Shown here: piece by piece, positions 31,961 to 50,477 of the stretch
How the letters are laid out: the number at the start of each line of letters is the position of its first letter
How positions within the stretch are numbered: the first letter of the stretch is position 1
Assembly: GCA_963761305.1 (NCBI GenBank)
Contig: CAVXGK010000002.1
Span: forward strand, 1,216,001-1,280,000
Direction of reading: 5' to 3'
DNA: 64,000 nt
DNA from: an uncultured Gemmatimonadaceae bacterium
Lineage (GTDB): Bacteria; Gemmatimonadota; Gemmatimonadetes; Gemmatimonadales; Gemmatimonadaceae
Made by a program: the position numbers and the translations under genes
Notes under the pieces: generated by a model
Database searches by the model: none
Seen by the model: the letters and a program-made list of their open reading frames with translations, nothing else
Told to the model about the DNA's origin: nothing

Positions 31961-31969
31961 AGGGCGTGT

Positions 31970-31998
31970 AGTGTAGGCCGCGCCAATAAGGGTGTCAA
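31970..31998 (-). promoter_or_regulatory. Sigma70-type promoter
   Basis: TTGACA(31998-93)-N17-TACACT(31975-70). Confidence 0.75.
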
Positions 31999-32050: not shown

Positions 32051-33025
32051 TTAAGATGGGGGCGCCGACGACGCTTCGCTCCCAGAATCCGGCGGCTCGT
32101 CCCCACGGAGCAGGGCCTCCAGTGCGCTCCGTTGGGCCGCGATTTCGGCCGCGCGGTCGGCGGCGATCAGCGCGGCCATGCGACGACGGTCGCGCTGCAC
32201 GCGCGCCAGGTACAACGGGAGAATGATCAACAGCAGCAACAGTCCGCCCAGCGTGACGTCGCCGATCAATGCTAGGCCGCCGTAGCGCCGGCGCGTCTGT
32301 CGCTGCCACCGCTGCTCGAACTCCGCCATCGTGATGCCGTACGTCGAGCGCACGGCGCGCTCCATCGTGCCCTGCGTCCGCCACGCCTCGAAGAACCTCG
32401 ACAATCCGTGCGCCGTGTCGAGCGATGCCAATTGATCCACCGCGCCGTACGCGAGCGCGTAGGCGGTCTGCGCGGTCGTCGCTCCCTCGGTGAACTCGCT
32501 GTCGAGCTGATCGAAGGTCGGTGCTCCCTTGATCGCCAGCGCTACGTTCGCCGCGAGCGCGTCGTCACGACCCGTCTCGCGCGCCGCGAAGGTCGCATAG
32601 CCCTCGTCGAACCAGCGCGGCGGGAGGTCGTCGAGGTATTCGTGCAGCGCGAGGTGGGCCAGCTCGTGGCGAAGGACGGCGCGCGGATCGCCGGCGTCCG
32701 CTCCCGCCGAGCGTCCCTGCATCACGATCCGGCGCGAATCGGGAAAGGCCACGGCTGCGCCCCACTCCGGAGCGCGCGGGCCCACCCACTCGCGAAACCG
32801 GCGCTTGTCGGGCGCGATCGCCAACAACACGCGCTGCGTCGGCCGCGGCAATCCTGGAAACGTGTCGTTCGCGATGGAGAGCGACACGAGCGACTGCGCG
32901 AGCGTCTGCTCGCTCGGATAGAACACCGCGGTGAATCGGCCCCGGTCCAGACGGAGCGGCGCGTCCTGCGACGTCGCGCGCGACGGCCAGCCGATTCCAC
33001 AGAGCGCGATCGCCGCCACGGCCAT
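32051..33025 (-). CDS. Membrane-anchored zinc metallopeptidase (MA-like/gluzincin)
   Basis: Signal peptide, HELAH (HExxH), PRWFDEGYA and a C-terminal TM. Start uncertain. Confidence 0.8.
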   Translation of the reverse strand: MAVAAIALCGIGWPSRATSQDAPLRLDRGRFTAVFYPSEQTLAQSLVSLSIANDTFPGLPRPTQRVLLAIAPDKRRFREWVGPRAPEWGAAVAFPDSRRIVMQGRSAGADAGDPRAVLRHELAHLALHEYLDDLPPRWFDEGYATFAARETGRDDALAANVALAIKGAPTFDQLDSEFTEGATTAQTAYALAYGAVDQLASLDTAHGLSRFFEAWRTQGTMERAVRSTYGITMAEFEQRWQRQTRRRYGGLALIGDVTLGGLLLLLIILPLYLARVQRDRRRMAALIAADRAAEIAAQRSALEALLRGDEPPDSGSEASSAPPS

Positions 33026-33039
33026 CGCGCGGCGAAGGT

Positions 33040-33915
33040 TCAGGGCACGCCGCCCGCGGCCACCGTTTCGATGGCCTCCGCGCACCGCTTGCCCCACGGA
33101 TTGAACTTGTTCGCGGAGAATCCGGCCTGCCACGTCGACGTCGCCTCGTGACGCTGCGAGTTGAACCAATACGCGCGGCCGAGCTCGAAGTACGCTTCGA
33201 TCAGGTTCGGCCCCAACGCGACGCTCTTCTGGAAAAACGTCTGCGCGTCCTCGAACATCTCCCGCTCGAGGTAGACCAGTCCGAGATAGAAGTGCGCGTA
33301 CAGCGTCGCCTTCTTGTCGTTGTCGAGCCTGATCGCCCGCGACAGATGCTCGATCGCCTCTCCAAAGATACGCTTCTTCAAGCAGATGTAGCCGAGGTTC
33401 ACGCGGGCCAGCGCGTTCATCGGCTCGCGCACGAGCACGCGCTGAAAGCTGACCAACGCGTCGTCGTAGCGGTCCTGCAGCATGAGCGACCAGCCGAGCA
33501 GCGACTCCGCCTGCGCATCACCCGGCGACAGTTCGAGCGCCTTCTTCAGGAACGTGTCGGCTTCGGCGTATTCGCCCGCCGAGATCCTGTGCCACCCCTT
33601 CTCGATGTACGTCGACGCGCCGAGATGGTCGCTGTGCACGGCGCTGTGCACGGCGTCGTGCACGGCGGGCTTGGCGCCGTCGAGATGCGGCGCAACGCCG
33701 CCGCTGTTGGCGCGAACGCCCTTCCACTTCTCGACGAGCGCGAGGACCTCCTCGCGCAGCACACCGAGCTGCTTGTACTCGGCGTCCACTGTCTTGAACA
33801 GCACGCCGATGTCGGCCTTGAGCGCGTCGAGCTTGGCGCCCGCGTCCGGTTCGTCGAGTCGCGCGTCGAGCAGCGCGCGCCGCGCGCGCAACCCGTCCAA
33901 CGATGCCTCCGCCAC
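33040..33915 (-). CDS. Coiled-coil plus TPR protein
   Basis: N-terminal heptads followed by several TPRs (ALELSP, LVREP, AIRLD, VALGP). GGAG 8 nt before the GTG start. Confidence 0.85.
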   Translation of the reverse strand: MAEASLDGLRARRALLDARLDEPDAGAKLDALKADIGVLFKTVDAEYKQLGVLREEVLALVEKWKGVRANSGGVAPHLDGAKPAVHDAVHSAVHSDHLGASTYIEKGWHRISAGEYAEADTFLKKALELSPGDAQAESLLGWSLMLQDRYDDALVSFQRVLVREPMNALARVNLGYICLKKRIFGEAIEHLSRAIRLDNDKKATLYAHFYLGLVYLEREMFEDAQTFFQKSVALGPNLIEAYFELGRAYWFNSQRHEATSTWQAGFSANKFNPWGKRCAEAIETVAAGGVP

Positions 33916-33918
33916 CGA

Positions 33919-34418
33919 CTACGCTCCCCCCCCCCGTCCTGGTCCCAGCTCTGCGCGCCGTGCTCGACGACGATGCGGTCCGCGTTCCACATGACGCGGT
34001 CCACGTCGAGCACGACGACGAGCTGGTCGCGCACTTTCGTCACGGCGCGGAGCACGTCCGTCGCCACGCCCTTGAACAGCGCGGGCGGCGGCGACATCGA
34101 CTCCGCGGGGACGACGGCGACTTCGAGCACCGCGTCGACGATCGCGCCGACGCGCCCGCTGCTCGTGTTGAGGACCAGCGTGCGCGTCTCTGGCGTGATC
34201 GTCGTTTCGGCCAGCTCGATGCGGCGGCGCAGGTCGATCACCGGAATCACTTCGCCGCGATGCTCGGTCACGCCCTCGACCCACTTTGGCACGTCGGGAA
34301 CGCTGTTGGGCGGCGAGTAGCGCAGCACGCGGTCGACCGACAGCACGTCGGCGGCGAACAAATCCACGCCGAGCTGAAAGACGACCAGTTTGACGCCGGC
34401 GACTTTGTCGTTCTTCAT
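33919..34418 (-). CDS. cheW: CheW protein (natural end probably TAG 33919; as sequenced it reads through a G10 tract to 33546)
   Basis: LVVFQLG..VPDVPKWVEGV..RGEVIPVIDLRRR..GAIVDAV..LVVVLDVD. Confidence 0.88.
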
Positions 34419-34885
34419 GGTTTCTCTCCTGTCGGCGTGGCCAGCACGCCGTCGAGCAACGCGTCCACGTCGACCACCCCGATCAGCTCCGAGCCGCGCC
34501 GCACGAGTCCGACCAGCGCGCCGTCCGCGCCGTCGCTCCCGGGCACGCCGCGCAGCTCCGATTCAGCGATCGAGAGCGCGTCGTAGACGTCGTCGACGGC
34601 AAGACCGATGCGGTGTGCGCCGCCGCGCCGGGTGAACACCAGCGTCGCGCCCGGATTCACGCGCGCGTCCGCGGTTCCGCTCCGCGCTCCGAGCAGCGCG
34701 AGCGGGTCGTAGACCGAAAGCAGGTCGCCGCGCAGCGTCGTGACGCCGCGCACGTGTTCCGGAGCATCGGGCATTCGCTGGAGCTCGGGCGATTCGATCA
34801 CCTCATCGACCGCGGCAAGCGAGACCGCGAACCGCTCGCCGCCAACCCGGAAGACGAGAACCCGCGCTACGCCGTCACGGAACAC
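34415..34885 (-). CDS. cheW: CheW-like protein
   Basis: LVFRVGGERFA..VDEVI..PDAPEHVRGV..LRG..GLAVDDV. Confidence 0.88.
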   Translation of the reverse strand: MFRDGVARVLVFRVGGERFAVSLAAVDEVIESPELQRMPDAPEHVRGVTTLRGDLLSVYDPLALLGARSGTADARVNPGATLVFTRRGGAHRIGLAVDDVYDALSIAESELRGVPGSDGADGALVGLVRRGSELIGVVDVDALLDGVLATPTGEKP

Positions 34886-35945
34886 GGTGCACCTCCGTCG
34901 CCATCATTTGCCCGATGAGTCGGCCGATGTCGGGCAGCGGCGCGACGCAGTCGGCGCCGGCCGCCTGGAGCGCGGCGCTCGGCATGCCGAAGATCGTCGC
35001 CGTCTCGCGATCCTGAATCACCGCGCGTCCGCCGACGGCGCGAATCGCGCGCGTTCCGTCGGCGCCGTCGCGACCCATGCCGGTGAGCACCACCGCGAGC
35101 GTCGACGATCCGAACACGCGCGCCGCCGACTGAAAGAGCATGTCCGCGGCCGGCCGCACGCCCCAGACGGGCGGAAGCTCGTCGAGCGTAATCACCGGTC
35201 CGTCGCCATCGTCGCGCACCGTCATGTGGCGGCCGCCCGGCGCGACGTACACGCGTCCATGCACGACCGGTTCGTCCTGTTCGGCTTCCGCGATGCGAAC
35301 GGCGCTCATCGAGTCGAGCCGCTGCGCGAAACTCTTGGTGAATCCGCGCGGCATGTGCTGCACGACGAGCACCGCGGCGGGGAGCGAACGATGCAGGTGC
35401 GGCACGATCGCGGCCAGCGCGCGCGGTCCGCCGGTGGACGCCGCGATGACGACCGCGCTCGACGCCGCCGCGCCGACGAGCGTCGGCCGCTCGACGACGA
35501 TCGGCGTGCGCCGCTGCAGCTGGCGGAGTCCGGCCGGATTCGCCGCGATGGCGGCGCGCAACGCCTCGAGCAATCGCGGCGAGATCGTCGCGAGGTCGAG
35601 ACTGATCTTTCCCGACGGCTTGAGGACGAAGTCGACGGCGCCCAGCTCCAACGCGCGCAGTGTGGCCGCCTGGCCGCCGCTCGTCGTGCCGGCGCTCAAC
35701 ATCACGACCGGGCGCGGCGACTCGCTCATGATGTAGCCGAGCGCGGTCAGCCCGTCGAGCTCCGGCATGTCCACGTCGAGCGTGACGACGTCGGGATTGA
35801 GGGCGTGCACGAGGCCCAGCGCTTCGTACCCGTTGCGCGCGACGCCGGCAACCTCGAACTCGCCCGAGGCCTCGAGGATTTGCGAGATCAGCCGCCGCAT
35901 GAAGGCGCTGTCGTCGACGACGAGGACGCGGCGTTTAGAGGACAC
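34875..35945 (-). CDS. cheB: Chemotaxis methylesterase CheB (REC plus esterase)
   Basis: VVDDSAFMR, LDVDMP, ASTGGP, QHMP, RPAAD, LTGMGRDG and FGMP. Confidence 0.96.
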   Translation of the reverse strand: MSSKRRVLVVDDSAFMRRLISQILEASGEFEVAGVARNGYEALGLVHALNPDVVTLDVDMPELDGLTALGYIMSESPRPVVMLSAGTTSGGQAATLRALELGAVDFVLKPSGKISLDLATISPRLLEALRAAIAANPAGLRQLQRRTPIVVERPTLVGAAASSAVVIAASTGGPRALAAIVPHLHRSLPAAVLVVQHMPRGFTKSFAQRLDSMSAVRIAEAEQDEPVVHGRVYVAPGGRHMTVRDDGDGPVITLDELPPVWGVRPAADMLFQSAARVFGSSTLAVVLTGMGRDGADGTRAIRAVGGRAVIQDRETATIFGMPSAALQAAGADCVAPLPDIGRLIGQMMATEVHRVP

Positions 35946-36432
35946 GCGACCCCTTTCGCACGGAGCGAACCTCGACGCGACCGTCCGTCAGGTAGAAATA
36001 GACGCTGCGGCCGTAGTCGCTCCCCGTATCTTCGCCGACGAGCTCGATGCGGGATTTCGCGAGCGCCGAGCGCACCGCGGCGACGTTGCGCTCGCCGATG
36101 TTGATGCCGCCCACCGTGGCGAAGTTGCTGCCGAACATGCTCGCGCCGCCGGCGATCTTGGCGCGGATACGATTCGGAACGGCGCCGAGCTTTTTCATCT
36201 GCTCCAGCACGAGCGGGACCGCCGTCGCCGGGAACTTGGCCGGATTCGAGCGGTCGCGCGACATCGACTCGCTCGGCAAGAGCACGTGCGCGAGTCCGCC
36301 GACGCGCGCCACCGAGTCGTACAGCACGATCGCCACGCAGGAGCCGAGGCCGACGGTCGTGATCAGACCGTCCGACGCCACCGCATAGTCGGCGACCTTG
36401 ACCCGGACTTCCGCGAAGGAATCGGCGATCAT
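35935..36432 (-). CDS. cheD: Chemoreceptor glutamine deamidase CheD
   Basis: GLGSCVA, HVLLP, AKIAGGASMF, IGERN and DTGSDYGR. ATG 36432 overlaps the cheR stop. Confidence 0.93.
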   Translation of the reverse strand: MIADSFAEVRVKVADYAVASDGLITTVGLGSCVAIVLYDSVARVGGLAHVLLPSESMSRDRSNPAKFPATAVPLVLEQMKKLGAVPNRIRAKIAGGASMFGSNFATVGGINIGERNVAAVRSALAKSRIELVGEDTGSDYGRSVYFYLTDGRVEVRSVRKGSRVL

Positions 36433-37250
36433 CGGCGGCGGAACACCCGTTCGCGCGCGTCCACCGCGGCGAACTTCGCGCGCGACGGGCCCAGCACGGT
36501 TTCGACCTTGCCGAGCACCAGGAAGCCGCCCGGCGCCAGCGCGTCGTGGAACGCGTCGAAGAGACGAATCTGCGTGTCGCGATCGAAGTAGATGAGCACG
36601 TTGCGGCACGCGATCAGGTGCAGCGGTCCGCGCGGCGCCGGAGCGGCCAGCAGATCACGATTCTCGAATCGCACCATCGTTCGCACGGTCGGCGACACGG
36701 TCAACGGCGGCGTCGCCGAGAAGTAGCGCGCCCGCAGGTCGTCCGGCGTGTCGGCGAAGTCGGACTCGGAGAACTGGCCGTGCCGCGCGGCGATCAGCGA
36801 TCGGCGGTCGATGTCGGTCCCGAGCACGTCGACGCGGCTCAAGCGCGACAACTCGCGCCGCTGTTCGGCGTGGCGATGAAAGAGGATCGCGAGCGAGTAG
36901 GGCTCGTGGCCGGAGGAACAGCCGGCGCTCCAGACGCGAATCGTCGAGAGCGGCGCCGACCACAGCGTCGGCACGACGTGCGTCGCCATCGCCCGATAGA
37001 CGTCCCAGTTCCGGAAGAGCTTCGTGACGTTGATCGTGAGAACATCGAGCAGGCGCTCGTACTCCGACGCGTCGCTGTCGAGCACGCGCGAGTACTCGCC
37101 GTAGGTGTTCACGCCGCGCGCGCGCATGCGCACGGCGATGCGCCGCTGCAGGCACTTCTCCTTGTAGCTCGCGCAGCCGAAGCCGCGCTCGACGGAGATC
37201 TTGCGTGTCAGCGCGAGAAAATCGCCGGCCCCCGAGGCTCGGTCGACCAT
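36429..37250 (-). CDS. cheR: Chemotaxis methyltransferase CheR
   Basis: TINVTKLFR, WSAGCSSGHEPYSLA, GTDID and CRNVLIYF. TGATG overlap with the upstream gene. Confidence 0.95.
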   Translation of the reverse strand: MVDRASGAGDFLALTRKISVERGFGCASYKEKCLQRRIAVRMRARGVNTYGEYSRVLDSDASEYERLLDVLTINVTKLFRNWDVYRAMATHVVPTLWSAPLSTIRVWSAGCSSGHEPYSLAILFHRHAEQRRELSRLSRVDVLGTDIDRRSLIAARHGQFSESDFADTPDDLRARYFSATPPLTVSPTVRTMVRFENRDLLAAPAPRGPLHLIACRNVLIYFDRDTQIRLFDAFHDALAPGGFLVLGKVETVLGPSRAKFAAVDARERVFRRR

Positions 37251-38869
37251 CAGTAGGCCTGCCGAACGGACTCGAGGTTCGATCGAACGATGGCGTTGTC
37301 GGGGTCGAGCTCGAGCGCCCGCTCCCAACATCGCAACGCTTCGTCCCGTTCCTGCCGCCGCAGGCGGATGTTCCCGAGCTTGAGATACGTGTCCGGACCG
37401 ATCTCCGGATTGGCGCGCGTGGCCCGCGCGTAGGCTTCGAGCGCTTCGTCGTACCGCGCGGCGCGGTACCGGAGGTCGCCGATGTTCTTGTGCAGATGCG
37501 CGACGCCGGCGTCCTCGTGGAGCCCGCGCTCGGCCGTCGCGAGCGCGGCGTCGTACTCGCCCAATCGCTCCTGGACCGCGGCGAGGTTGTTGTGCAGCGT
37601 GGCGGCGTGTGGATACGCCGTTACGCCGTCAGTGAGGATCGACGCGGCGCGCGGCGCATCACCGACGAGCGCCGCGGCGAGGGCCGCGAAGTGGAACCAG
37701 GCGGCCGTGGGCGGCTTCCGCCCGAAGAGCCCGCGCGCGCCGGCGAGCGCGGCGTCGGCGGCCGAGAGGTCGCCGGTGAGAAGACACACGACGCCGAGCG
37801 ACGTTTGAATGCGCGCGTCCTTGCCGCCGCCGCGCGCGATGGCGTCGTTCAGCGCGGCGCGCGCTTCGTCGTAGCGGTGCTGCTGCTCGAGCACGAACGC
37901 GAGGTTGTGGAACACCGCCGGCTTCGCGTCCAGGCGCGTGACGCATTCCTTGAACGCGGCCGTCGCTTCGTCCCACTTCGCCTGGCGGGCGAGCACGAGC
38001 CCGACGTAGTAGCGCGCCGCCGCGTCGCCGTCGCGCAGCTCGATCACGCGGCGGAACTCGCGCAGCGACTCGTCGAACATCCCCGTCTTGAAGAACGCGA
38101 TCCCGAGGTTGCGATGCTCCTCGGCGCGTCCGTGCGCCGCGACGGCCGGAGCGGGCGCCGTCTTGCCGATGCGATGGATGAAGCTCGCGTTCACCAGCCC
38201 GAGCAGCGCCTTGCCGACCTCGAATTCCACGAGCCCCGACGCGTCGATGATCCCCTGCACGTCGCGCATGCCGTCGACCAGCTCGAGGACGCTCGTCTGT
38301 TCCTCGGTCAACTCGGCGTCGCTCGTCAGGACGCGGTTGCGATTGATCTCGAATACGAGATCGAAGCTTGGGATTTTTTTTTCGACGAGGCTCCACTCGT
38401 CGACCCGGCGCGCCCCCTCGAGCAGCAGCGACTCGGGGGTGATCGACACGATGTAGTCCTGTCCTTCGGGCACGACGTCGGCCTCGAAGTTGAACGTCCC
38501 TTGGTGCCAGGTGAACAGGAAGTAGACGGCCTCGCGAATCTGCACGTCCACCGCCACGCGCAACTGGTCGGGCGAGACGATGCCCTGCTCCACGAGGATC
38601 CGCCCGAGCGGCGTGTCGAGGCGCTTGGCCTGCGCGTCGAGCGCGGCGTCGAGCTGCGCCTGCGTGACGCCCCCGCTCTTCACGAGACGGTCGCCGAGCC
38701 GGTCGCGGCGATTCACGACCGACGCGTAGCAGATCCGCCCCTTGTCGAAGTAGATATAGCCGAAGCTGGCCCGGTGCGTGATGCTCAGGCAGCCGGTCTT
38801 CTTGCCCATCGCGAGGAGTTGGAGAACGTCGGGGAGGCTCGCCTCCTTGAGGTTGCCGCGGATCGCCAT
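37250..38869 (-). CDS. DUF4388 (PATAN-like) domain with an MshEN-like insert and C-terminal TPRs
   Basis: GNLKEASLPDVLQLL..KTGCL..GRI..W..GTFNF..LLLEGARRVDEW, RLGxxL motifs and multiple TPRs. Confidence 0.85.
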   Translation of the reverse strand: MAIRGNLKEASLPDVLQLLAMGKKTGCLSITHRASFGYIYFDKGRICYASVVNRRDRLGDRLVKSGGVTQAQLDAALDAQAKRLDTPLGRILVEQGIVSPDQLRVAVDVQIREAVYFLFTWHQGTFNFEADVVPEGQDYIVSITPESLLLEGARRVDEWSLVEKKIPSFDLVFEINRNRVLTSDAELTEEQTSVLELVDGMRDVQGIIDASGLVEFEVGKALLGLVNASFIHRIGKTAPAPAVAAHGRAEEHRNLGIAFFKTGMFDESLREFRRVIELRDGDAAARYYVGLVLARQAKWDEATAAFKECVTRLDAKPAVFHNLAFVLEQQHRYDEARAALNDAIARGGGKDARIQTSLGVVCLLTGDLSAADAALAGARGLFGRKPPTAAWFHFAALAAALVGDAPRAASILTDGVTAYPHAATLHNNLAAVQERLGEYDAALATAERGLHEDAGVAHLHKNIGDLRYRAARYDEALEAYARATRANPEIGPDTYLKLGNIRLRRQERDEALRCWERALELDPDNAIVRSNLESVRQAY

Positions 38870-38903
38870 CAGCCCCTCCGCGACGCGCGCGATCGGATGT
38901 GGC

Positions 38904-40826
38904 TCATGGCGCGTCCTCGATGAGACGCGCGGCGGCGTCGGGCCACTGCCAGATGACCTTCTCGCCGTCGAGGAAGAACGGATCGGTCGCCGCCTTGAGC
39001 GCCGCGGCGCGCGCCGGCTCGGTCTCGTCCGGCTCGAGCGCCGCGCGAACGAAGCCGATGGTCACCGGCACCGCCGCCACTTCGGCCGAGGCGACGATCC
39101 GGTTGGCGACGCCGATGATCTCGCGGACGCTCGCGACCGCGCGCTCGGCGAGGTAGCCGAGAATCTCGGCGTTCGGCTCGACGCCGAGGTCGCGCAGGTA
39201 GCGCGCGAAGAGACGCTCGCGTAGCGAGCGGTCGGGTGCCTGCATCGGCACGACCAAGCCGCCCTCGAACCGCGAGCGGAGGCGATCCTCGAGGCCGGAG
39301 AGCTCGCGCGGCGGGCGGTCGCTCGCCAGGACGAGCTGCTTGCCGTCGGCGTACAACGAATTGAAGACGTGAAAGAGCTCTTCCTGCGTGCGCTCCTTGC
39401 CGGCGACGAATTGCACGTCGTCGAGCAGCAGCGCCGACGCGTCGCGATAGCGGGCGCGCCAGCGGTCCACCGTGCCTTCCTGCAGCGCGGCGATCAACTC
39501 GTCGATGAAGAGCTGCGCCGGCACGCAGGCGACCGATCCGCGCCCGGCCGTCGCCGGCACGAGTCCGTGCCCGATCGCGTTCAACAAGTGCGTCTTGCCG
39601 ACGCCGCTCGGCCCGTGAATGAACAGCGGGTTGTAGCGCGTGCCCGGCGCCGACACGACGGCGTCGGCGGCGCGCACCGCCATCTGATTGCTGCCGCCGA
39701 CCTCGAATCCGGAGCGCGTGAACGCCGACGACGGTCCCGCCGGCGGCGACGCGACGCGCAGCGCGCGCTCGAGCACCTGCTCCGCTTCGTCGACGCGATC
39801 GGGATCGCGGAACGCGGGATGGATCGCCATCGACGCGTCGGCGCGCGACGTCTGCCGTTCCAGATCGCGCAGCCGGTTCACGCGCCCTTCGAACTCGCGC
39901 AGGAACGACTCGACGCCGTTCGCCGGCGCGTTCTCCCTCATGGCGCGCTCGAGGCTCGTCGTGCGATAGCCTTCGGCGCCCCAGTACGCGATCGCGTCGG
40001 AGATCCGTTGTCGCCACTGCTCGACGTGCTGCGCCACCGCCGACGCGATGTCGGTGAGGAAGCTCGCGAACTCGCCGCTGGGTCGCGGCGGCGTCACGCG
40101 GCGCCGCTTCTCGGCCAGGTCGCCGAGGACGCTCATCACGTTGTCGGGCGACACCTGCTCGCCGCCGAGCGCCTGGAACGCAATCAGGCGGGTGAGCGCC
40201 CCCTGCAGCTCGCGGACGTTGTCGAACTCGAGCGCGCCGACTTCGTCGATCACGCCGGCGCGGAACCGCATGCCGCGCTCCTCGCACTTGGCTTTGAGGA
40301 TCGCCATGCGCGTTTCATAATCGGGCGCGCCGATGTCGACGATCAGGCCGCCGGCGAGACGCGAGACGAGGCGCTCGTCGACGTCGGCGATGTCGGCGGC
40401 CGGGCGGTCGCTCGTCATCACGATCTGGCGGCCGTCGCCTTGCAGCGCGTTGAAGATCCGCAGCAGCTCGCTCTGCGTTTCCTTCCGCGCCGTGAGGAAT
40501 TGAATGTCATCGATCAGCAGCAGGCCGACGCCGAGGTAGCGCGCCTTGAACGCCTCGGCCGCGCCCTCGGCGATGGCCGCATGCATCTCGCCGACGAACT
40601 CGTCGAGCGTGACGGCGGCGACGGACAGCGGCTGCCGCCGCTGTGCGACGTGATTGCCGATCGCGCTCATCAGGTGCGTCTTGCCGAGCCCCGACCCGCT
40701 GTACATGAAGAGCGGGTTGTACGCCGTGCCCGGCGCCTCGGCCACCGCGTGCGCCGCGGCGACGGCGAGGCGGTTGGCCGAGCCGACGATGAAGTTGTCG
40801 AAGCGGAGCTTCGGATCGAGCTGCAT
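38904..40826 (-). CDS. DnaA/Hda-family protein with two tandem DnaA domain-III AAA+ modules and no domain I or IV
   Basis: Module 1: FDNFIVG, YNPLF..GLGKTHL, IDDIQF, TSDR, RLVSR, NVRELQG. Module 2: YNPLFIHGPSGVGKTHL, LDDVQF, TQEELFHVFN, ASDR, RLRSRF, SVREIIG. Confidence 0.9.
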   Translation of the reverse strand: MQLDPKLRFDNFIVGSANRLAVAAAHAVAEAPGTAYNPLFMYSGSGLGKTHLMSAIGNHVAQRRQPLSVAAVTLDEFVGEMHAAIAEGAAEAFKARYLGVGLLLIDDIQFLTARKETQSELLRIFNALQGDGRQIVMTSDRPAADIADVDERLVSRLAGGLIVDIGAPDYETRMAILKAKCEERGMRFRAGVIDEVGALEFDNVRELQGALTRLIAFQALGGEQVSPDNVMSVLGDLAEKRRRVTPPRPSGEFASFLTDIASAVAQHVEQWRQRISDAIAYWGAEGYRTTSLERAMRENAPANGVESFLREFEGRVNRLRDLERQTSRADASMAIHPAFRDPDRVDEAEQVLERALRVASPPAGPSSAFTRSGFEVGGSNQMAVRAADAVVSAPGTRYNPLFIHGPSGVGKTHLLNAIGHGLVPATAGRGSVACVPAQLFIDELIAALQEGTVDRWRARYRDASALLLDDVQFVAGKERTQEELFHVFNSLYADGKQLVLASDRPPRELSGLEDRLRSRFEGGLVVPMQAPDRSLRERLFARYLRDLGVEPNAEILGYLAERAVASVREIIGVANRIVASAEVAAVPVTIGFVRAALEPDETEPARAAALKAATDPFFLDGEKVIWQWPDAAARLIEDAP

Positions 40827-40839
40827 GATCGACCCGCCG

Positions 40840-41469: not shown

Positions 41470-41589
41470 AGGACTGAGTGTTGAGTTTGGCGTCGAAGCG
41501 TGCTTGACAGTGGACTAATTAGTTTTTATTGAGAATCGGATACTCTAGCGTCAGGCGTCAGCGTCAGGCGGTGGGTGAAGGTGCGGCGG

Positions 41590-42428: not shown

Positions 42429-43288
42429 GGCGCGCCCGCGCCGTCGATTCGCCCGTCGCGAAGCCACGCCGAGGCCCGCGCGGCGCACCGGTCGAGCAGG
42501 CGCCGCAGGAGCCCGAGCGGCGTGACCTTCGACGCCGCGACGACGAGGAGACCGCCGTCGTCGCTCCGCGTCATCGCCACGACGCTCCCACGCGTCTCGA
42601 ACGTGATCGACTGCCACTCGCCGACGTCCAGATACTTCGTCGATCGCTGCACTTCGTCGGAGATTCCGCTCAACTGTGCGCCGACGTCCTGCGACAAATC
42701 GGCGCCGTTGGCGTCGACGTACACGCCGCCCAGCACCAAGCCGCTGGCGTCGAGCAGGAGCGCCGTCTGCCCCTCCTCGGTCAGCAGGCTCGCGAAGAGA
42801 CGCCGCGGATCGTTCGACGACGCGGGTGGCGCGAACGCGCTCGTTTGCGGAGAAGGCACCGCCTCATCGGGCACAGCCACGTGGGTGCCAGACGCCCGCC
42901 GCACCGTGCGCAGCGCGCCCGCGACCGAGGCCCCCCCGCCGCCGCTCGCCGCGGCGCCGGTCAAATACCGCTCGGCGTCGTCGACGCGACCTTCCTGAAA
43001 GCTGAGATATCCGAGTCCCTTCATCGCCCCCGCGTGATCGGGAACGATTCGAAGCACGGCGTTCCATTCGTCGCGGGCGCGCGCGAGGTCGCCGCGATCG
43101 ACCGCGACGCGCGCGAGTAAGTCGTGCGCGTCCGCGTTGTGCGGGTGCCGCTCGAGCCCGCGCAGCGCGACTTTGCTCGCGAGCTCGAACTGTCGCTGCC
43201 GGCGCAGCGCGTCGCCAAGCTGAAGGAACACCAGGCTCCCCGGCTCGCGCGCGAGCTCTTCGCTCCAGCGGCGGATGTCGTCAACCAT
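42425..43288 (-). CDS. TPR plus roadblock/LC7 fusion protein
   Basis: N-terminal TPRs (PGSLVFLQLGD, GLERHP, LRIVPD) and C-terminal ALLLDASGLVL..TPLGLLR. Confidence 0.8.
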   Translation of the reverse strand: MVDDIRRWSEELAREPGSLVFLQLGDALRRQRQFELASKVALRGLERHPHNADAHDLLARVAVDRGDLARARDEWNAVLRIVPDHAGAMKGLGYLSFQEGRVDDAERYLTGAAASGGGGASVAGALRTVRRASGTHVAVPDEAVPSPQTSAFAPPASSNDPRRLFASLLTEEGQTALLLDASGLVLGGVYVDANGADLSQDVGAQLSGISDEVQRSTKYLDVGEWQSITFETRGSVVAMTRSDDGGLLVVAASKVTPLGLLRRLLDRCAARASAWLRDGRIDGAGAP

Positions 43289-44225
43289 TGGCGTGCACCT
43301 CGAGCACCCGCTCGAGTCGCGCGAGCGCGTCGAGCGCGTCGCGCGCTTCGAGGGCGACGGTGCCGGCCGGCTCACGGCGCAGCAGCTGCTCGACCGCGTG
43401 GCGGGCGGCGCTCACGTGTGCGGCGACGCCAGTCGGCGGCGAACCAGTGGGCGACCACGCTCGCGCCCGCGCGACGGCGGATGGTTCGACGTTCTTTCGA
43501 ATCGTGACGACGCCGGTCGTGGCCAGCCCATACGCGATCTTGGCCGTCTCGAACTCGTCGCGGGTCAGCAGCGCGGCGATCGCGCGCAGGTCGCGCTCGC
43601 CGTCGATCATCGTCAGGACCTGCCACTCGTGCGGGAGCAGGTCGAGCGTCGTGCCGCCGTCGTGCTCTTCGCCCATCGGTGCAAGCTCGGGCACGACGTT
43701 CAGGCTCGGCACCACGTCGGCGATGCGCGACCATTCGTCGATGCGCCGCGCGCCTTCCATGAGCAGGGATTCGGTCGAGACGGCGATGCGCGGGTCGCGC
43801 GGCATCTCCTCACGCGCGCGTTCTTCGAACGAGAAAAACCCCTCGCGCCACGACATCAGCTCGAATACCACGCTCTCGATCTGCAACCGCAAGTGCCGCT
43901 CGAGCTCGCGCTGGGTGATCGCCCCGAGGCGAACGAGCGAATCGACGATGGTCCGCGCACCCGCGACCCCATTGCCCTCGGTCGACGCGTGCGCGCGATC
44001 GAGATCGGCTTGCGTGATCCGCCCCGCCTCCAGCAATACGAGCTCCGTCGGCACGCTCTTGCTGCGGATCGACGCGTGCACGACGCGGCCGCCGTCGAAG
44101 TGGACGACGCCCTCGTCCTCGCGCAGCTTCGACGATACGCACAGGAGTCCCGTCTTCCGGCTCAGGTCGAGCAGCTGGAAGACGTCGTGGATGCCGAGCT
44201 CGCGAAGCGGACCTTCGATCGCCAT
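43281..44225 (-). CDS. DUF4388 domain protein
   Basis: GPLRELGIHDVFQLL..KTGLL..GRVVHA..WREGFFSF..LLMEGARRIDEW. Paralogous to the N-terminal half of 37250-38869. Confidence 0.85.
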   Translation of the reverse strand: MAIEGPLRELGIHDVFQLLDLSRKTGLLCVSSKLREDEGVVHFDGGRVVHASIRSKSVPTELVLLEAGRITQADLDRAHASTEGNGVAGARTIVDSLVRLGAITQRELERHLRLQIESVVFELMSWREGFFSFEERAREEMPRDPRIAVSTESLLMEGARRIDEWSRIADVVPSLNVVPELAPMGEEHDGGTTLDLLPHEWQVLTMIDGERDLRAIAALLTRDEFETAKIAYGLATTGVVTIRKNVEPSAVARARAWSPTGSPPTGVAAHVSAARHAVEQLLRREPAGTVALEARDALDALARLERVLEVHANG

Positions 44226-44227
44226 GG

Positions 44228-46987
44228 TCAGCCCGTTCGCAGCGTGAGAATGTGCTGCAGCTCGGAGGCGCTGCGCAGATCGCGACGCGCGCGCCGAGCG
44301 AACGACGATGCGGGATCGAGCGCGATCACGCGGCGCCAGCGTTCGGCCGCCTCGCGGAAGCGGTGCTGTTCCGCCAGCAACGCGCCCTCGAAGTACAGCG
44401 CGCCGACGTTCCCCGGATCGAACCGCAGCACCCGCGCGAACGCATGGCTCGCGTCGCGCCGGCGATCGAGCTCGATCAGCGTCTCACCGAGCGCGATGAG
44501 CGCGTCGAAGTTGTACGGATCGCGCTCCAGCATTTCGATCAGCAGCGGCATGGCGTCGCTCGGGCGACTCAGCCGGCGTCGAAGCGCCGCGAGCGCGAGC
44601 GTCGCTTCGGCGTAGGTCGGCACCGCGTCGAGCGCCGCGACCAACTCGTGCTCGGCTTCGCGATCGCGGCCTTGCGACTGCAACAGATCCGCGAGCCGGA
44701 AGCGCACGACGGCGAAATCCTCGTCCACCTCGAGCGCGAGCCGGTACATCTCGATCGCGCGGTCGATGTCGCCGATCGACTGCGCGATGTCGCCCGTACG
44801 CAGCAACACGTCGGCCCGCCGCGGCGAGATCCGCCGCGCACGGTTGAGCAGCTCGAGCGCCGCCACCGGATCGCCGGAATCCGCGCACGCCTCCGACGCG
44901 AGCATCAGCGCGTCGACGTCGTTCGCGTCCCGCGCCACCAACAGCTGCGCGATCGGACGCGCCTCGGCCCCGCGCCCCAGTCGCAGGAGCGCCATCGCCT
45001 CGCCGGCAAGCGCCTGCGGACGATCCGGAACGATCGCCAGCGCAGCGCGAAAGCGCTCCAGCGCTTCGCCGAACAAGCCCTGTTTCGCGAAGATCTCGCC
45101 GAGGATCGTCATCCCCATGGCGCGGTCCTCGCCGCGCGCCAGCGCGCGCGCGACCTCGGCCGACGCCCGGTCGAAGTAGCCCTTCGACAAGTAGTCCGCC
45201 GCCATCGCGAACGGCGACCGGTCGCTCGCGCGCCGCGCACGCGGCCGCTCGGACTCTTCTTCGCTCGATGGTTTCGCATCCGGCGCCGCTGTGGTGGCCG
45301 GCGCCGACTCGGCCGGCGCGGCGGGCGCCAGCTCCGTGAACAGCGTGTCGAGAGAGCCGGGATCGAAATCGAAGTCCTCGACGACCGCGTCCTCGTGCGC
45401 GCCGCCGAGGTCGGGCGGCACCGTGAGGTCGGGGTCTTCGTACTCGACGTCCATCGCCAACTCGAACTTCTGCGCCACGTAGTACGGTTCCAGCTCGAGC
45501 GCGCGCTTGGTTTCGCGCAGCGCGCCCTCGAAGTCGCCGAGATTCGAGAGCGTGAAGCTCATGTTGTAGTGCGCTTCGGCGAAGTCGGGTCGCGCCTGGA
45601 TCGCGCGCGCGAAGGCGCCGCGGGCGTCGTCGTACCTGTGGAGCTCGGCGAGCACGAGGCCGACGCCGTTCCATGCTACCGGATGCTCGGCCGCCGAGCG
45701 CAACACGCGGCGATACGACTCGAGCGCGTGCTGGAATCGCTTGGCGCGGCTCATGAGCAGCGCCAGGTTGAGACGCGCCTTGACGAATTCGGGCCGATGC
45801 TCGAGCGCCGCGTTGAACGCGGCGAGCGAGTCCTCCGATTTTCCGCTGTGGTAGAGCGCCACGCCGAGGTTGTTCCGTGCGATCGCGTACGACGGCTCGG
45901 CGTCCAGCGCGCGCCGATAGCTCGACTCGGCGTCGGCGAAGCGTCCTTCCTGGTGCATCGCCACGCCGCGCTCGTTCCACAGCTTGGGGCTGTGCGGCTG
46001 GCGGCGCAGCAGATCGTCGTACAGCCCGATCGCCTCGCCGGGTTGGCGCAACAGCAGATGCACTTCGGCCATCGCCTGTAACACGAGGTCGCGGTCTTCG
46101 CCCCGGTCGAGCGCGACGCCGTACTCGCGCATCGCTTCGGCGTAGTAGCCCTTGCTGCGGAACGCGAGGCCCAGGTTGTAGTGCGCGAGCTGTCCGTCGA
46201 CCGACACCTGCAGCTCTCGCTTCGGCTGGCCGTTCGCCGCGTCGCGGCCCCGCTGTTGCTCGAGCGACAGATTCGCGTGCGCGCGCGACAGCGACGGATT
46301 CAGCTTGATGGCGCGGCGCGTGGCCGCCTGCGCGTCCTCGTGGCGTCCGATGTCGCCGAGGACGAAGCCCATCAGGTACAGGGCGTCGTGGTTCTCCGGA
46401 TTCAACGCGATCGCGCGCTCGAGTGCGCGCAACGCGTCGTCGTTCAGGCCGCGGTGATAGAGGATCTCGCCGAGCGTGAAGTGCAGCAGCGAGCTGTCCG
46501 GATCGCGGGCCAGCGCGCGTTCGATGCATTCCTGCGCGCGCTCCATGTCGCCCGAGTGCTTCTCGGCGAGCGCGAGCTGCAGCAGGGCCGCGACGTCGTT
46601 CGGCGCGTACTCGAGGAGGGCGCGGAACTCGTTCGCTGCGTCGTCCTGCTTGCCGAGCAGCGAGAACGTGCGGCCCAACTCCCAGCGCGCTTCGCGGTCG
46701 TCGGGCCGGGCCCGGAGACGCTCGCGCAGCTCGGGCACCCGTGTGTCGTAGTAGCCGGTGTTGAAGTACGCGATCTCGAGGTTGCGCTGCGCGACCTGCA
46801 TCGTGTGGTCGAGCTCGAGCGCCTTCATGAAGGCGGCGACCGCCTCCTGATACAGCCCCTTGTTGTAGTAGAGAACGCCGAGGTTGTTGTGCGCGCCGGC
46901 GTCCGACGGATCGATCCGCCGGGCGAAGGAGCGAAGGACCTCGCGGTCCCGCTCCGACGTCAGTGGGGCCGGCGGGATCATGATCAC
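44228..46987 (-). CDS. Large cytoplasmic multi-TPR scaffold (919 aa)
   Basis: Many TPRs (AHNNLG, AHYNLG, LWNERG, ARNNLG, AWNGVG) split by an acidic/Pro-rich linker. No signal peptide. Confidence 0.88.
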   Translation of the reverse strand: MIMIPPAPLTSERDREVLRSFARRIDPSDAGAHNNLGVLYYNKGLYQEAVAAFMKALELDHTMQVAQRNLEIAYFNTGYYDTRVPELRERLRARPDDREARWELGRTFSLLGKQDDAANEFRALLEYAPNDVAALLQLALAEKHSGDMERAQECIERALARDPDSSLLHFTLGEILYHRGLNDDALRALERAIALNPENHDALYLMGFVLGDIGRHEDAQAATRRAIKLNPSLSRAHANLSLEQQRGRDAANGQPKRELQVSVDGQLAHYNLGLAFRSKGYYAEAMREYGVALDRGEDRDLVLQAMAEVHLLLRQPGEAIGLYDDLLRRQPHSPKLWNERGVAMHQEGRFADAESSYRRALDAEPSYAIARNNLGVALYHSGKSEDSLAAFNAALEHRPEFVKARLNLALLMSRAKRFQHALESYRRVLRSAAEHPVAWNGVGLVLAELHRYDDARGAFARAIQARPDFAEAHYNMSFTLSNLGDFEGALRETKRALELEPYYVAQKFELAMDVEYEDPDLTVPPDLGGAHEDAVVEDFDFDPGSLDTLFTELAPAAPAESAPATTAAPDAKPSSEEESERPRARRASDRSPFAMAADYLSKGYFDRASAEVARALARGEDRAMGMTILGEIFAKQGLFGEALERFRAALAIVPDRPQALAGEAMALLRLGRGAEARPIAQLLVARDANDVDALMLASEACADSGDPVAALELLNRARRISPRRADVLLRTGDIAQSIGDIDRAIEMYRLALEVDEDFAVVRFRLADLLQSQGRDREAEHELVAALDAVPTYAEATLALAALRRRLSRPSDAMPLLIEMLERDPYNFDALIALGETLIELDRRRDASHAFARVLRFDPGNVGALYFEGALLAEQHRFREAAERWRRVIALDPASSFARRARRDLRSASELQHILTLRTG

Positions 46988-47601: not shown

Positions 47602-47610
47602 ATCAATCCT

Positions 47611-49623
47611 TTAAAGGAGGCTGCTGACGTCGACGATGAGCGAAGGCCGGCCGTCGCCGAGGAGCGTGGCGCCCCCGAAGAACGGCGGTCCGTCTCGCAC
47701 CGCGTCGTACTGCTTCACGACGATCTCTTCCTGTCCGGTGAGCTCGTCGATGACGAGCCCCGCCCGGCGATCGCCGAGGTCGATCACCACCACGTGCTCG
47801 AGGTCGATCTCCGTCGGCGGGTCGTACGCCGGCAGCCCGACCAACGACCGCAGCCGAAGCAGCGGCAGCACTTCGTCGCGCGCGAGCAGGACTTCCTTGC
47901 CCTTCACCGTGCGCAGCACGTCGGGCGTCAGCTCGACGGTCTCGCTCACGTGGGCCTGCGGGATCGCGTACGTCTCGCCGCCGACCCGCGCCAGCAGCGC
48001 GCGCATGATGGCCAGCGTCAACGGAAGCCGGATCACCACCGTCGTTCCCTGCCCCGGCACCGAGCGGATGTCCATCGCGCCGCCGAGCGAGCGCACCTTC
48101 GTGTAGACCGCGTCCACGCCGACGCCGCGCCCCGACAATCCCGTCACCTGCTCCGCCGTCGAGAACCCCGGCCGCGCGAGCAGCCGGAGCAGCTCGTCTT
48201 CGGTGAGCTCGGTCTTCGTCGGTTCGACCAGCCCGTCGCGCTTGGCGCGCTCGAGGACGCGCTCGCGGTCGATGCCCTTGCCGTCGTCACTGACCTTGAT
48301 CACGACCGCCGAACGGTCGCGCACCGCGCTCAAGACGAGACGGCCCACGGCCGGCTTGCCGAGAGCGGCGCGAACGTCGGGACGCTCGATGCCGTGGTCC
48401 ACCGCGTTGCGCAGCAGATGGACCAGCGAGTCTGCGATCTCGTCGAGCATCGACCGATCGAGCTCGATGTCCTTGCCTTCGACGACGAAGTCGACCGGCT
48501 TGCCCAGCCCGCGCGACGCGTCGCGCACGACGCGCGGAAACCGGTCGAACACCTGCGACACCGGAATCATGCGGCTCGCCGTGATCTCGTCGCGCAGATC
48601 GGTGATGAGGCGCGACGACTGCATCACCGCCTCTTCCAGCGCGAGATCGCCGAGCTGGCCGGCGAGCTGCGTCAGACGGCCGCGCGCGATCACCAGCTCG
48701 CCGATGAGATTCATCAGCGCGTCGAGGCGCCGCACGTCGATGCGCATCGAGCGCACGCGGCCGCTCTCCGACCGCGTCTCGCTGGCCGGCGTCACGGCCA
48801 CGCCGTGCGCCGGCGTGAGCGTCATCGCCGACAACGCCGCCATGTCGTGCGCCGGCGTCATGGTGATCGCCGGCATGCTCCACGACGGCGTCAGCGCCGG
48901 CCACGCGCCGGAGCGACGCGGTTCGCCGACCTGCACCTCGAGCACGTCGCCCATTCCCCGCACCACGCTCTCGATCTCGGTGGACGAGCACGACGCGGCA
49001 AGGCGGACGGTGAACTCGGTGTCGAAATTTTCGGCCTGGAGCTCGATGAGCGGCGGCGTCGTCGACACGACCTCACCGATCGAGCGCAGCGCCTGCACGA
49101 TGAGGAACGCGCGCACGCCGCGCAGCGGCGTCTCCGGCTTGAGCCAGATGCGCACCGCTTCGCCGGTGCCGGACGGCGACACCAGGGAGTCGTCGGTCGC
49201 GGCGGGAATCGCCACGGTCTCGCGCCGCGCGGCGGGAGTGGTCGTCAGCGCGCGCAGCGCGGTGATGAGGTCCGGTGCGACGACGTCGCCTTCATGCCCC
49301 GCGACCGCCGCCTCGACCGCGTGCTCGAGCACGTCGGCGGAGCGGAACAGCGTGTCCATGATCGTCGCTTCGATCGACAGCTCGCCGCGGCGCACGCAGT
49401 CGAGCACTGTCTCGAGCTCGTGCGCGAGATCGGCGACGACGGTATAGCCCATCGTCGCCGCCATTCCCTTGATCGTGTGGACCGAACGGAAAATCGCGCC
49501 GACCGCCGATGCGGCGTCGGGGCCGGTCGCATCGCGCTCCAGCTGGAGCAGCGATTGGTTGACGGCGGCGACGTGCTCTCGGCTCTCGGTGAGAAAGAGC
49601 TGGGCGTACTCGCGATTATCCAC
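47611..49623 (-). CDS. cheA: Chemotaxis histidine kinase CheA (P1-P5)
   Basis: FRSVHTIKGMA, LDALMNLIGELVI, HLLRNAVDHGIE, DDGKG, GFST, SGRGVG and LPLTLAI. Confidence 0.97.
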   Translation of the reverse strand: MDNREYAQLFLTESREHVAAVNQSLLQLERDATGPDAASAVGAIFRSVHTIKGMAATMGYTVVADLAHELETVLDCVRRGELSIEATIMDTLFRSADVLEHAVEAAVAGHEGDVVAPDLITALRALTTTPAARRETVAIPAATDDSLVSPSGTGEAVRIWLKPETPLRGVRAFLIVQALRSIGEVVSTTPPLIELQAENFDTEFTVRLAASCSSTEIESVVRGMGDVLEVQVGEPRRSGAWPALTPSWSMPAITMTPAHDMAALSAMTLTPAHGVAVTPASETRSESGRVRSMRIDVRRLDALMNLIGELVIARGRLTQLAGQLGDLALEEAVMQSSRLITDLRDEITASRMIPVSQVFDRFPRVVRDASRGLGKPVDFVVEGKDIELDRSMLDEIADSLVHLLRNAVDHGIERPDVRAALGKPAVGRLVLSAVRDRSAVVIKVSDDGKGIDRERVLERAKRDGLVEPTKTELTEDELLRLLARPGFSTAEQVTGLSGRGVGVDAVYTKVRSLGGAMDIRSVPGQGTTVVIRLPLTLAIMRALLARVGGETYAIPQAHVSETVELTPDVLRTVKGKEVLLARDEVLPLLRLRSLVGLPAYDPPTEIDLEHVVVIDLGDRRAGLVIDELTGQEEIVVKQYDAVRDGPPFFGGATLLGDGRPSLIVDVSSLL

Positions 49624-49650
49624 GGCGCTTGGGTCGCACGCGGACCGTGC

Positions 49651-50013
49651 TCACCCGAGCACGCGCTGCACCGCCTCGAGGACGCGACTGGGTTGGAACG
49701 GCTTGACGACGAAGTCCTTCGCGCCGGCTTGAATCGCTTCGACGACGAGCGCCTGCTGCCCCATGGCGCTGCACATGAGGATTTTCGCGCCCGGGTCGAA
49801 CTTGCAGATCTCGCGCACGGCATCGATGCCGCCCATGTCGGGCATCACGATGTCCATGGTCACGAGATCCGGCCGCAGCTCCCGGTACTTCTCTACCGCT
49901 TGAACGCCCGTCTCGGCCTCGCCGACGATCTCGAACCCGGCTTGGGTGAGAATGTCGCCTACCATCGTGCGCATGAAGATGGCGTCGTCGCAGACCAGTA
50001 CTGTGTGACTCAC
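49651..50013 (-). CDS. cheY: Chemotaxis response regulator CheY
   Basis: VCDDAIFMR, TMDIVMP, CSAMGQQ and KPF, resembling Bacillus/Thermotoga CheY. GGAGG ribosome-binding site. Confidence 0.94.
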   Translation of the reverse strand: MSHTVLVCDDAIFMRTMVGDILTQAGFEIVGEAETGVQAVEKYRELRPDLVTMDIVMPDMGGIDAVREICKFDPGAKILMCSAMGQQALVVEAIQAGAKDFVVKPFQPSRVLEAVQRVLG

Positions 50014-50033
50014 GGGAACATGCCTCCAAAGAC

Positions 50034-50477
50034 CTAGGACAGCAGGACTTGCCGGATGAGAGCGGCGAGATCCAACACGACCACCGGTGCACCGTCGAGC
50101 ATCGCCACACCACGCACGAGATCCCCAGCCGCTTCCGTGGCGCCCGAGCCATCGATCTCGAGCTGCCGCACGTCGGCGACCTCGTCTACCACCACCCCGG
50201 CCAAGCGGTCGCGGTGGCGGACGAGAAGAATGGATCCCTCCGCGGCGGGCTCGGCTGACGGATCGAGCCGGACCCCCAGGTCTAGTATCGTCACGATCGT
50301 GCCGCGGACGTTGAGCAGACCGCGCACGAACGCGGGAGCTCCTGGGAGTCGGGTGATCGCTCCCATTGGGATGAGCTCTCTGACGTCTTCTCCGTCGGCC
50401 GCAAAGACCGTTTTCCCCGCGCGGAACATCAGCGCGGAGGTCAACGTGCCATCAGGGGTCGACGCGATAGAAGTCAA
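50034..50477 (-). CDS. cheW: CheW protein (start uncertain: TTG 50477 or TTG 50444)
   Basis: VRELI..TRLPGAPAFVRGLLNVRGTIVTILDL..GVVVDEV. Confidence 0.9.
   Translation of the reverse strand: MTSIASTPDGTLTSALMFRAGKTVFAADGEDVRELIPMGAITRLPGAPAFVRGLLNVRGTIVTILDLGVRLDPSAEPAAEGSILLVRHRDRLAGVVVDEVADVRQLEIDGSGATEAAGDLVRGVAMLDGAPVVVLDLAALIRQVLLS

Follow-up and report, generated by a model that had tools for sequence, protein, structure and literature searches.

The window analysed here is a 64-kb stretch of DNA from an uncultured Gemmatimonadaceae bacterium (CAVXGK010000002.1, positions 1,216,001 to 1,280,000), and within it we studied a cluster of 19 genes, all on the minus strand, that runs from a cheW gene at position 50477 down to a HExxH peptidase gene at 32051. 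Chemosensory (che) genes stand on both sides of an inner block that encodes an MglA/MglB-type GTPase switch, further roadblock and TPR proteins, two DUF4388/PATAN proteins (PAT1 and PAT2), and DnaA2, an ATPase with two DnaA-type modules and a C-terminal tail that is predicted to dock on PAT2. PAT2 with this tail is the common core of the cluster. In what follows, G000 is the source genome, other labels in G are sampled genomes, and L, P, f and g stand for loci, proteins, families and genera. The features, with positions of the window, are:

50034..50477, minus strand: cheW (1); PF01584, E 3e-28; start uncertain; overlaps rluA
49651..50013, minus strand: cheY, stand-alone receiver; D54 and K104 in 61/61 homologs
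47611..49623, minus strand: cheA; Hpt, P2, dimer, HATPase and CheW domains; sole cheA match of the genome
46984..47601, minus strand: cheC phosphatase; both ExxN motifs retained
44228..46987, minus strand: TPR919, large TPR scaffold; Pfam TPR; SgmX-like by layout only
43281..44225, minus strand: PAT1, DUF4388/PATAN with degenerate MshEN-like insert; Pfam and alignment
42425..43288, minus strand: TPR-roadblock fusion; TPR and Robl_LC7
42078..42428, minus strand: stand-alone roadblock protein; PF03259
41590..42081, minus strand: MglB-like protein with C-terminal helix; 29% identity to the genome's second MglB, E 8e-13; without Pfam match
40840..41469, minus strand: MglA paralog; G1, R53/T54, Q82 and NKxD motifs intact (90 homologs); 49% to second MglA
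38904..40826, minus strand: DnaA2, two DnaA domain-III AAA+ modules, helical linker and predicted C-terminal docking tail; without domain I or IV
40119..40820, minus strand: DnaA2 module 1 (residues 3-236); ATPase motifs retained; His in place of the single-stranded-DNA-binding Ile
40032..40073, minus strand: DnaA2 motif A, acidic amphipathic helix (residues 252-265); retained in mini-genes
39753..40025, minus strand: DnaA2 helical repeat unit (residues 268-358); common to multi-repeat proteins
39033..39734, minus strand: DnaA2 module 2 (residues 365-598); deleted in three families
38907..38978, minus strand: DnaA2 tail motif (residues 617-640); predicted binder of the PAT2 TPR groove
37250..38869, minus strand: PAT2, DUF4388/PATAN with MshEN insert (38540-38701) and TPR; Pfam, NCBIfam
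36429..37250, minus strand: cheR; Pfam
35935..36432, minus strand: cheD; Pfam
34875..35945, minus strand: cheB (REC and methylesterase); Pfam
34415..34885, minus strand: cheW (2); Pfam
33546..34418, minus strand: cheW (3); frame continues past a poly-G tract at about 33926-33935
33040..33915, minus strand: TPR291; Pfam TPR
32051..33025, minus strand: HExxH peptidase (Peptidase_MA_2); start inferred; lost in several lineages

The Pfam matches follow one another as CheW, Response_reg, CheA (Hpt, P2, dimer, HATPase, CheW), CheC, TPR, DUF4388, TPR with Robl_LC7, Robl_LC7 and, after mglB, an Arf-type GTPase, two Bac_DnaA stretches, DUF4388 with TPR, CheR, CheD, CheB, CheW, CheW, TPR and Peptidase_MA_2. 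A first-pass annotation of this DNA had described such a co-directional run, and all 19 genes were recovered in that order and on that strand. Stop and start codons overlap at 9 of the 18 internal junctions, with a widest gap of 120 nt (mglB-mglA), and the overlaps by which the inner block had been said to join the che genes on both sides are real: 4 nt (GTGA) at 46984-87 between cheC and TPR919, and 1 nt (TGATG) at 37250 between PAT2 and cheR.

Recurrence and partial losses of the cluster

Gene neighbourhoods around the ATPase gene were compared in 100 loci (80 obtained by search, 20 hand-picked for diversity), and gene content across 151 genomes of the phylum, in which related genomes are not independent. 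The same gene order was found in f1-f5 and f8, six families in all. Matches to cheC were found in 99 of the 151 genomes and matches to the PAT2 N-terminus in 106, PAT2 being matched in 101 of the 105 sampled Gemmatimonadales genomes, nearly the whole sample of the order thus holding some version of the locus; families f6 and f9-f12 gave no match to either, and f7 gave PAT2 only, in one of 16. cheC and DnaA2 share a contig and lie within 10 kb of each other in 82 of the 89 genomes with both placed, the other seven having them on different contigs (coordinates transcribed by hand). The proposed synteny of the inner block with the che genes held in relatives.

The further proposal of a single module stood only in part. 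The synteny is there, but the cluster can be divided: che genes, roadblocks/MglA and ATPase domains each go missing separately, and PAT2 and the tail stay behind. PAT2 is present in every retrieved cluster form that covers its place. Seven loci, besides the five genomes noted below that have no cheC match, lack the downstream che genes, and five of them retain only cheY upstream, with D54 intact, while loci of genus g9 lack the roadblocks and cheR. Our literature search found no published description of the cluster, and the first-pass annotation knew of none, subscription journals and supplements (e.g. table S2 of PMC4316618) being outside its scope.

DnaA2, its deletion series and the predicted docking tail

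DnaA2 (640 aa) contains two Bac_DnaA stretches (182 and 176 bits), while its alignment to the genome's own DnaA shows no domain I or IV and Pfam gave no match to either. That DnaA2 is the cell's initiator is ruled out by a separate, full dnaA (473 aa) elsewhere in G000. Residues were counted in 90 full-length homologs, after 5 of 95 had been dropped as short or frameshifted. In module 1, Walker A is kept in 89, Walker B in 90, the arginine finger in 87 and sensor II in 89; the corresponding counts for module 2 are 87, 87-88, 90 and 84. The position of I190, which passages of PMC10721633 describe as required for binding single-stranded DNA, is His in module 1 (80/90) and Ile in module 2 (80/90). 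The AlphaFold model has a predicted local distance difference test score (pLDDT) of 88.5 and a predicted template-modelling score (pTM) of 0.50, the latter leaving the arrangement of the modules unsure, and its best structural match is domain III of Bacillus subtilis DnaA (root-mean-square deviation 1.7 Å, TM 0.94). In a tree of 80 rows each module forms its own clade (100/96 and 100/99), with branches far longer than those of true DnaA, and the doubling of modules therefore predates the sampled families; loss at a later stage is the likely origin of the short forms seen in f1 and f8.

DnaA2 passes the DnaA model TIGR00362 (519.7 against a cut-off of 343.9 bits) only through the sum of its two modules and falls under the cut-off of the Hda model TIGR03420 (176.9 against 194.8 bits). 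By eye we saw no Hda-type clamp-binding motif at its N-terminus, and it is not the single AAA+ domain with a clamp-binding N-terminus that makes up Hda. With DnaA initiators and Hda it shares the domain III fold, motifs and catalytic residues, and it differs from both in its two modules, new linker and tail, lack of domains I and IV, and separate clades. Databases label the relatives DnaA or 'DnaA/Hda family', and such annotation would mislead origin and marker-gene analyses.

DnaA2 occurs naturally in a series of deleted forms. Module 2 has lost its lid in L084, L086 and L093 and is wholly missing from L087, L088 and L155 (392 to ~420 aa), and both modules are gone from six genomes (G036, G047, G052, G072, G074 and G114) that had seemed to lack a DnaA2 gene, where an open reading frame (ORF) of 60-90 aa with only motif A and the tail lies directly before PAT2. 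Hidden Markov models (HMMs) of the two motifs, each of which matches solely DnaA2 across the whole of G000, recover these mini-genes among 3901 segments, with E 2e-7 to 9e-3 for motif A and E 5e-9 to 0.43 for the tail (weakest in L105). The tail lies at most 300 nt from, and before, 118 of 120 PAT2-like starts, and the two misses are unlinked paralogs. In five mini-gene genomes of two genera the MshEN insert of PAT2 is absent together with the ATPase modules; all five carry an identical 54-residue deletion, so the joint losses are probably one event. Co-loss of modules and MshEN was accordingly set aside as a hint only, and G114 lacks the modules and has MshEN. One protein without AAA+ modules, P0266 (626 aa), joins an unrelated Cys-containing N-terminal region to motif A, the linker and an end resembling the tail. 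At L160:2716-5574 and L161:6858-9776, third PAT2-like paralogs of 952-972 aa combine DUF4388, which has an MshEN-type insert, with a carboxypeptidase-regulatory-like domain, and no tail gene was found upstream of them.

For the short natural DnaA2 and full PAT2 of L088, the complex model scored 0.86, against 0.00 for the best of three controls; the mark applied to such models is reached by 116 of 157 solved pairs and by 2 of 215 mismatched pairs. Separate runs share at least 81% of their contacts, partner pLDDT is at least 82, and the model places the tail (residues 614-640 in the numbering of the window's DnaA2) in the TPR groove of PAT2, where two Asn are kept in at least 93%. We consider it likely that the tail docks in this groove, as the model predicts and the natural deletions support. 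Some points tell against such docking. Conservation at the interface does not exceed that of the remaining TPR region (0.60 against 0.58, with 4866 of 20000 random draws as high), the complex is that of a relative's pair with alignments of our own making, and the controls excluded the cluster's other TPR proteins. TPR grooves accept many peptides, and part of the score may reflect likeness, because peptide-in-TPR complexes are common among solved structures.

The linker extends beyond the cluster. Its profile matched 467 representatives, and 26 of the best 150 hold at least three copies of the unit; among the 25 of these that were looked up, the labels given name Thermoplasmata/Thermoplasmatota (3 clusters), other archaea (1), Ca. 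Wallbacteria (2) and Methylacidiphilaceae (1). In five multi-repeat proteins (P0124, P0127, P0161, P0176 and P0259; 1084-1420 aa), 5-8 repeats are followed by a single, well-conserved DnaA domain III, an order that parallels linker then module 2 in DnaA2; domain IV is absent, and four of the five have a zinc ribbon after the DnaA domain. They are possibly an undescribed archaeal DnaA-domain family, although none of the five bears an organism label and the Thermoplasmata labels belong to related repeat proteins. Their DnaA domains form their own clade (100/99), not joined to DnaA2, and the branch splitting both DnaA2 modules from the rest has 85/73 in this tree, against 99/84 in the tree of 80 rows. 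A PATAN-like N-terminal domain in these proteins found no support (hhalign probability 0.4%, E 0.16). A metagenome scan with P0161 gave one match, of 1.3 kb, to the zinc ribbon. Named matches among the best 120 of 551 in the linker search are all Gemmatimonadales, an Atlas search returned chiefly Gemmatimonadota clusters, and among 40 listed of 56 plasmid records we found single-module matches only.

Chemosensory, GTPase and PATAN components

cheA, cheC, cheD and cheR of the cluster are the sole matches across G000, and the cluster holds the genome's only Che system. Phospho-acceptor residues are kept in CheA (His, 55/56 homologs) and CheY (Asp, 61/61), and CheA has a P2 domain and, by Pfam, no receiver. 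The cluster contains no chemoreceptor gene; two lie elsewhere in the genome, and both receptors span 172 aa from HAMP motif to tip, 28 above the 144 aa of 36H receptors. The one receptor searched aligned best, and nearly without gaps, with 2CH7, a 44H receptor, and the 44H class is read here from length and this one alignment rather than from a class HMM. In FliG-less genomes, a small sample, three to six receptor genes were counted in five of five che-bearing genomes and none in four of five che-less ones, and in this sample receptors track the Che arm. At L125:2375-10119 (G000:C1), one receptor gene of G000 follows downstream of an ORF for a periplasmic binding protein; about 180 nt separate it from a divergently oriented GGDEF/HD gene, which encodes a 1567-aa TPR-HD-GGDEF-AAA protein.

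With a P2-bearing CheA, CheC, CheD and 44H-length receptors, the Che arm resembles class F1 and the Dif system of Myxococcus xanthus, of which DifG is the CheC. The best NCBIfam models (CheA_Halo, CheY_Halo and CheC_Thtogales) all scored under cut-off. PMC10746217 names CheC, CheD and 44H receptors as the marks of F1, all of which are found here, whereas F1 control of a flagellar motor is not. The first-pass annotation had compared the Che arm with Frz, and here the comparison had to be replaced: FrzE lacks P2 and carries a receiver (excerpts of PMC3945109), which rules out Frz as the nearest system, and the architecture of CheA matches Dif/F1 instead. Dif has the order CheW-CheY-CheA(P2) and 44H receptors, and controls exopolysaccharide in response to pilus activity (same excerpts); like the cluster, it has a non-flagellar use. 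The cluster is nevertheless not Dif itself, because M. xanthus lacks CheD (again PMC3945109, in part) and the cluster has it. Compared with Dif/F1, the cluster differs in having no receptor gene in the operon, in its CheR, CheB, CheD and three CheW, in nine non-che genes between cheC and cheR, and in the trailing TPR and peptidase genes, and most of its hosts lack a flagellar rotor gene match.

In MglA, the G1 P-loop, R53/T54, T78-Q82 and NKxD (M. xanthus numbering) are each kept in 88-90 of 90 homologs, and the gene is coupled to an mglB roadblock gene; the Ras-like switch and phosphorelay that had been proposed are intact by these and the phospho-acceptor residues. A second mglB-mglA pair (L126:6804-11451, G000:C1) follows dnaX, a small ORF and recR; by this context it is probably the Myxococcus-type ortholog. 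Given this separate mglBA and a separate dnaA, the cluster's GTPase and ATPase are both paralogs. Group 1 MglA is known from Gemmatimonadetes, with some mglA genes near PATAN genes (PMC4316618, in part); the main text of that paper, as far as available, does not contain 'DnaA' and ties no che cluster to these genes. L113 and L114 (genus g29) have a shortened TPR919 and divergent MglA (38-42%) and PAT1 (25-27%), with DnaA2 and PAT2 staying at 40-43%.

The MshEN insert of PAT2 scores 53.4 bits with NCBIfam NF053729, above the cut-off of 38, matches the structures of MshE (5HTL, E 3e-4) and PilF (6F8L, E 1e-6), and has two RLGxxLxxxG...LxxxLxxQ motifs, with R57 in 87/87, Q80 in 85/87 and the second R in 76/87 homologs (Pro in the source genome). 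It is near-canonical and PAT2 is a likely sensor of cyclic di-GMP (c-di-GMP), a link that had been suggested for the cluster and is borne out at the level of motifs. In PAT1 the MshEN-like insert is degenerate, the first RLG...Q motif being absent in an alignment of which 68 of 97 rows were used.

Parts of the cluster thus recall several known systems. As in the Frz-driven MglA/MglB/MglC and SgmX of M. xanthus, there are a group-1-type MglA, MglB, extra roadblocks and a large TPR protein; unlike them, the cluster is one locus rather than scattered, its MglA is a paralog beside a second mglBA, its Che arm is not Frz-like, and two PATAN proteins and a DnaA-type ATPase are added. With cyanobacterial PatA-type (PATAN-REC) proteins, which bind PilB1 and PilC, it shares PATAN/DUF4388 tied to a chemosensory system, whereas its PATAN domains are not fused to receivers, PAT2 has the near-canonical MshEN insert, and the TPR domain of PAT2 is predicted to hold the ATPase tail. 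Actinobacterial conservons (CvnA kinase, CvnB roadblock, CvnC and CvnD GTPase) likewise encode kinase, roadblock and small GTPase together (PMC4316618, partial text), while here a Che kinase replaces CvnA, MglA is of group 1 type, and MshEN, TPR and AAA+ parts are added. By analogy, the cluster would work like a combination of Dif/F1, MglA-SgmX and PatA, and it departs from the definitions of Frz, Dif, DnaA and Hda.

Candidate function and surroundings of the cluster

No FliG or flagellin match was found in G000, which is 93% complete, and of 88 genomes of the order that have both cheC and DnaA2, 65 give no FliG match; flagellar chemotaxis is ruled out on these grounds. PilM is absent in only 2 of the same 88, and in G000 pilMNO and a secretin gene form a single run, beside several T2SSE-family ATPases and 9 GGDEF matches elsewhere in the survey of the genome. 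One T2SSE-family match is split over two frames (G000:C2:2989503-2990562), possibly by a frameshift.

We lean, by a little, towards a PAT2-centred polar scaffold that would relay signals from Che, MglA and c-di-GMP to the motor of type IV pili, with DnaA2 docked by its tail. Orphan receptors of 44H length would act through CheW and CheA to form CheY-P, with CheC resetting and CheR, CheB and CheD adapting the pathway; the parts and catalytic residues of this step are those found above, and its wiring is modelled on F1 systems. The GTP/GDP cycle of MglA would be governed by MglB and the two further roadblock proteins, and TPR919 is a likely MglA effector by analogy with SgmX, whose TPR-gap-TPR layout it shares, in layout only (SgmX layout from passages of PMC7519303). 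PAT2 would bind c-di-GMP through its MshEN insert and hold DnaA2 by the predicted tail, in keeping with the natural deletions, and the AAA+ modules, likely active ATPases, may oligomerise or switch the scaffold, as an optional amplifier rather than an origin-binding initiator. The output would be the placement or activity of PilB/PilC at one pole. We infer this output from precedent: PATAN domains of Synechocystis have PilB1 and PilC as binding partners (bioRxiv 10.1101/2021.06.11.447907, in part), and MglA-GTP acts on PilB via the TPR protein SgmX (PMC7519303, in part). Several results speak against the scaffold as drawn. The cluster contains no pil genes, the second mglBA of G000 could serve pili alone, and co-occurrence with PilM does not discriminate, because PilM is nearly universal in the phylum (146/151 genomes, including families without the cluster). 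The inner block occurs without a cheC match in five genomes, G072 and G074 have only che genes, mini-gene and PAT2, G116 has only DnaA2 and PAT2 left, and module 2 retains the Ile for single-stranded DNA.

The same scaffold might instead control exopolysaccharide, attachment or a motile-sessile switch through c-di-GMP, with pili as a Dif-like input. The order and build of the Che arm, the exopolysaccharide control exerted by Dif, the conserved MshEN of PAT2 and the receptor gene beside the GGDEF/HD gene would all fit, yet the cluster holds no polysaccharide genes, its CheD sets it apart from Dif, and the MglA, roadblock and PATAN precedents favour pilus placement, leaving such an output unlikely. 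Coupling to the cell cycle, which the first-pass annotation had raised, found little support. A PAT2-tethered DnaA2 would here co-polymerise with true DnaA or inactivate it in the manner of Hda, tying replication to polarity or chemosensory state. Walker A/B, arginine finger and sensor II in both modules, the I190 equivalent of module 2, the fit to B. subtilis domain III and the nearness of divIVA and dcw agree with it, as against the missing domains I and IV, the unseen clamp motif, the sub-threshold Hda score, the far longer branches, the loss of module 2 in three families and of both modules in six genomes, and the His of module 1, the longer-kept module; we judge it distinctly unlikely. 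That an F1 Che unit and an MglA/PATAN/DnaA2 unit, functionally separate, share the locus by history is suggested by the loss of either arm without the other. We think it highly improbable, as in six families the che genes are interrupted by the inner block, which overlaps them at either end, a lone cheY with intact D54 stays beside the inner block in the five loci without other che genes, and PAT2 and the mini-gene remain with che genes after the rest of the block has gone.

The polar scaffold, which we prefer, can be set beside a broader and decidedly doubtful idea, in which a duplicated initiator ATPase, peptide-tethered to a polar c-di-GMP sensor, would form mixed filaments with true DnaA, chemosensory input and a Ras-like switch would gate replication, and the repeat-DnaA proteins, found among partly archaeal-labelled giants, would represent a second, wider signalling use of DnaA. 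Gemmatimonadota are common soil bacteria whose cell biology is little known. In Myxococcus only an indirect connection between chemosensory output and MglA has been described so far (PMC4316618, in part), and the candidate links are here testable pair by pair, because one operon unites two halves that are separate in Myxococcus. DnaA2 suggests that the DnaA ATPase domain has been reused outside origin binding, and it offers a defined, predicted docking peptide of 25 residues together with natural deletion alleles.

Upstream of the cluster lie genes for PNP and IleS, a DksA/TraR-like gene (labelled from its sequence, without a family call), two lspA and rluA, the tandem lspA pair (signal peptidase II) occupying 51432-52617 upstream of rluA; on the downstream side there are tRNA-Val, a TPR gene and, at 31998, a promoter-like site. 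The placement between divIVA and dcw that had been given is loose: the locus is near both, with these genes intervening. A promoter scan gave two sites, one of them directly after the cluster, where 31682-31998 holds a promoter-like TTGACA-17-TACACT and the tRNA-Val, and terminators in the scan were no commoner than chance. The HExxH peptidase is possibly a passenger gene. Finally, cheW (3) reads through the poly-G tract here and is 290 aa long, whereas 55 of 60 related loci have 157-206 aa, and its ORF reaches ~450 aa, running through TPR291, in L005, L006 and L022; the long frame is probably due to a homopolymer error or slippage at 33926-33935.

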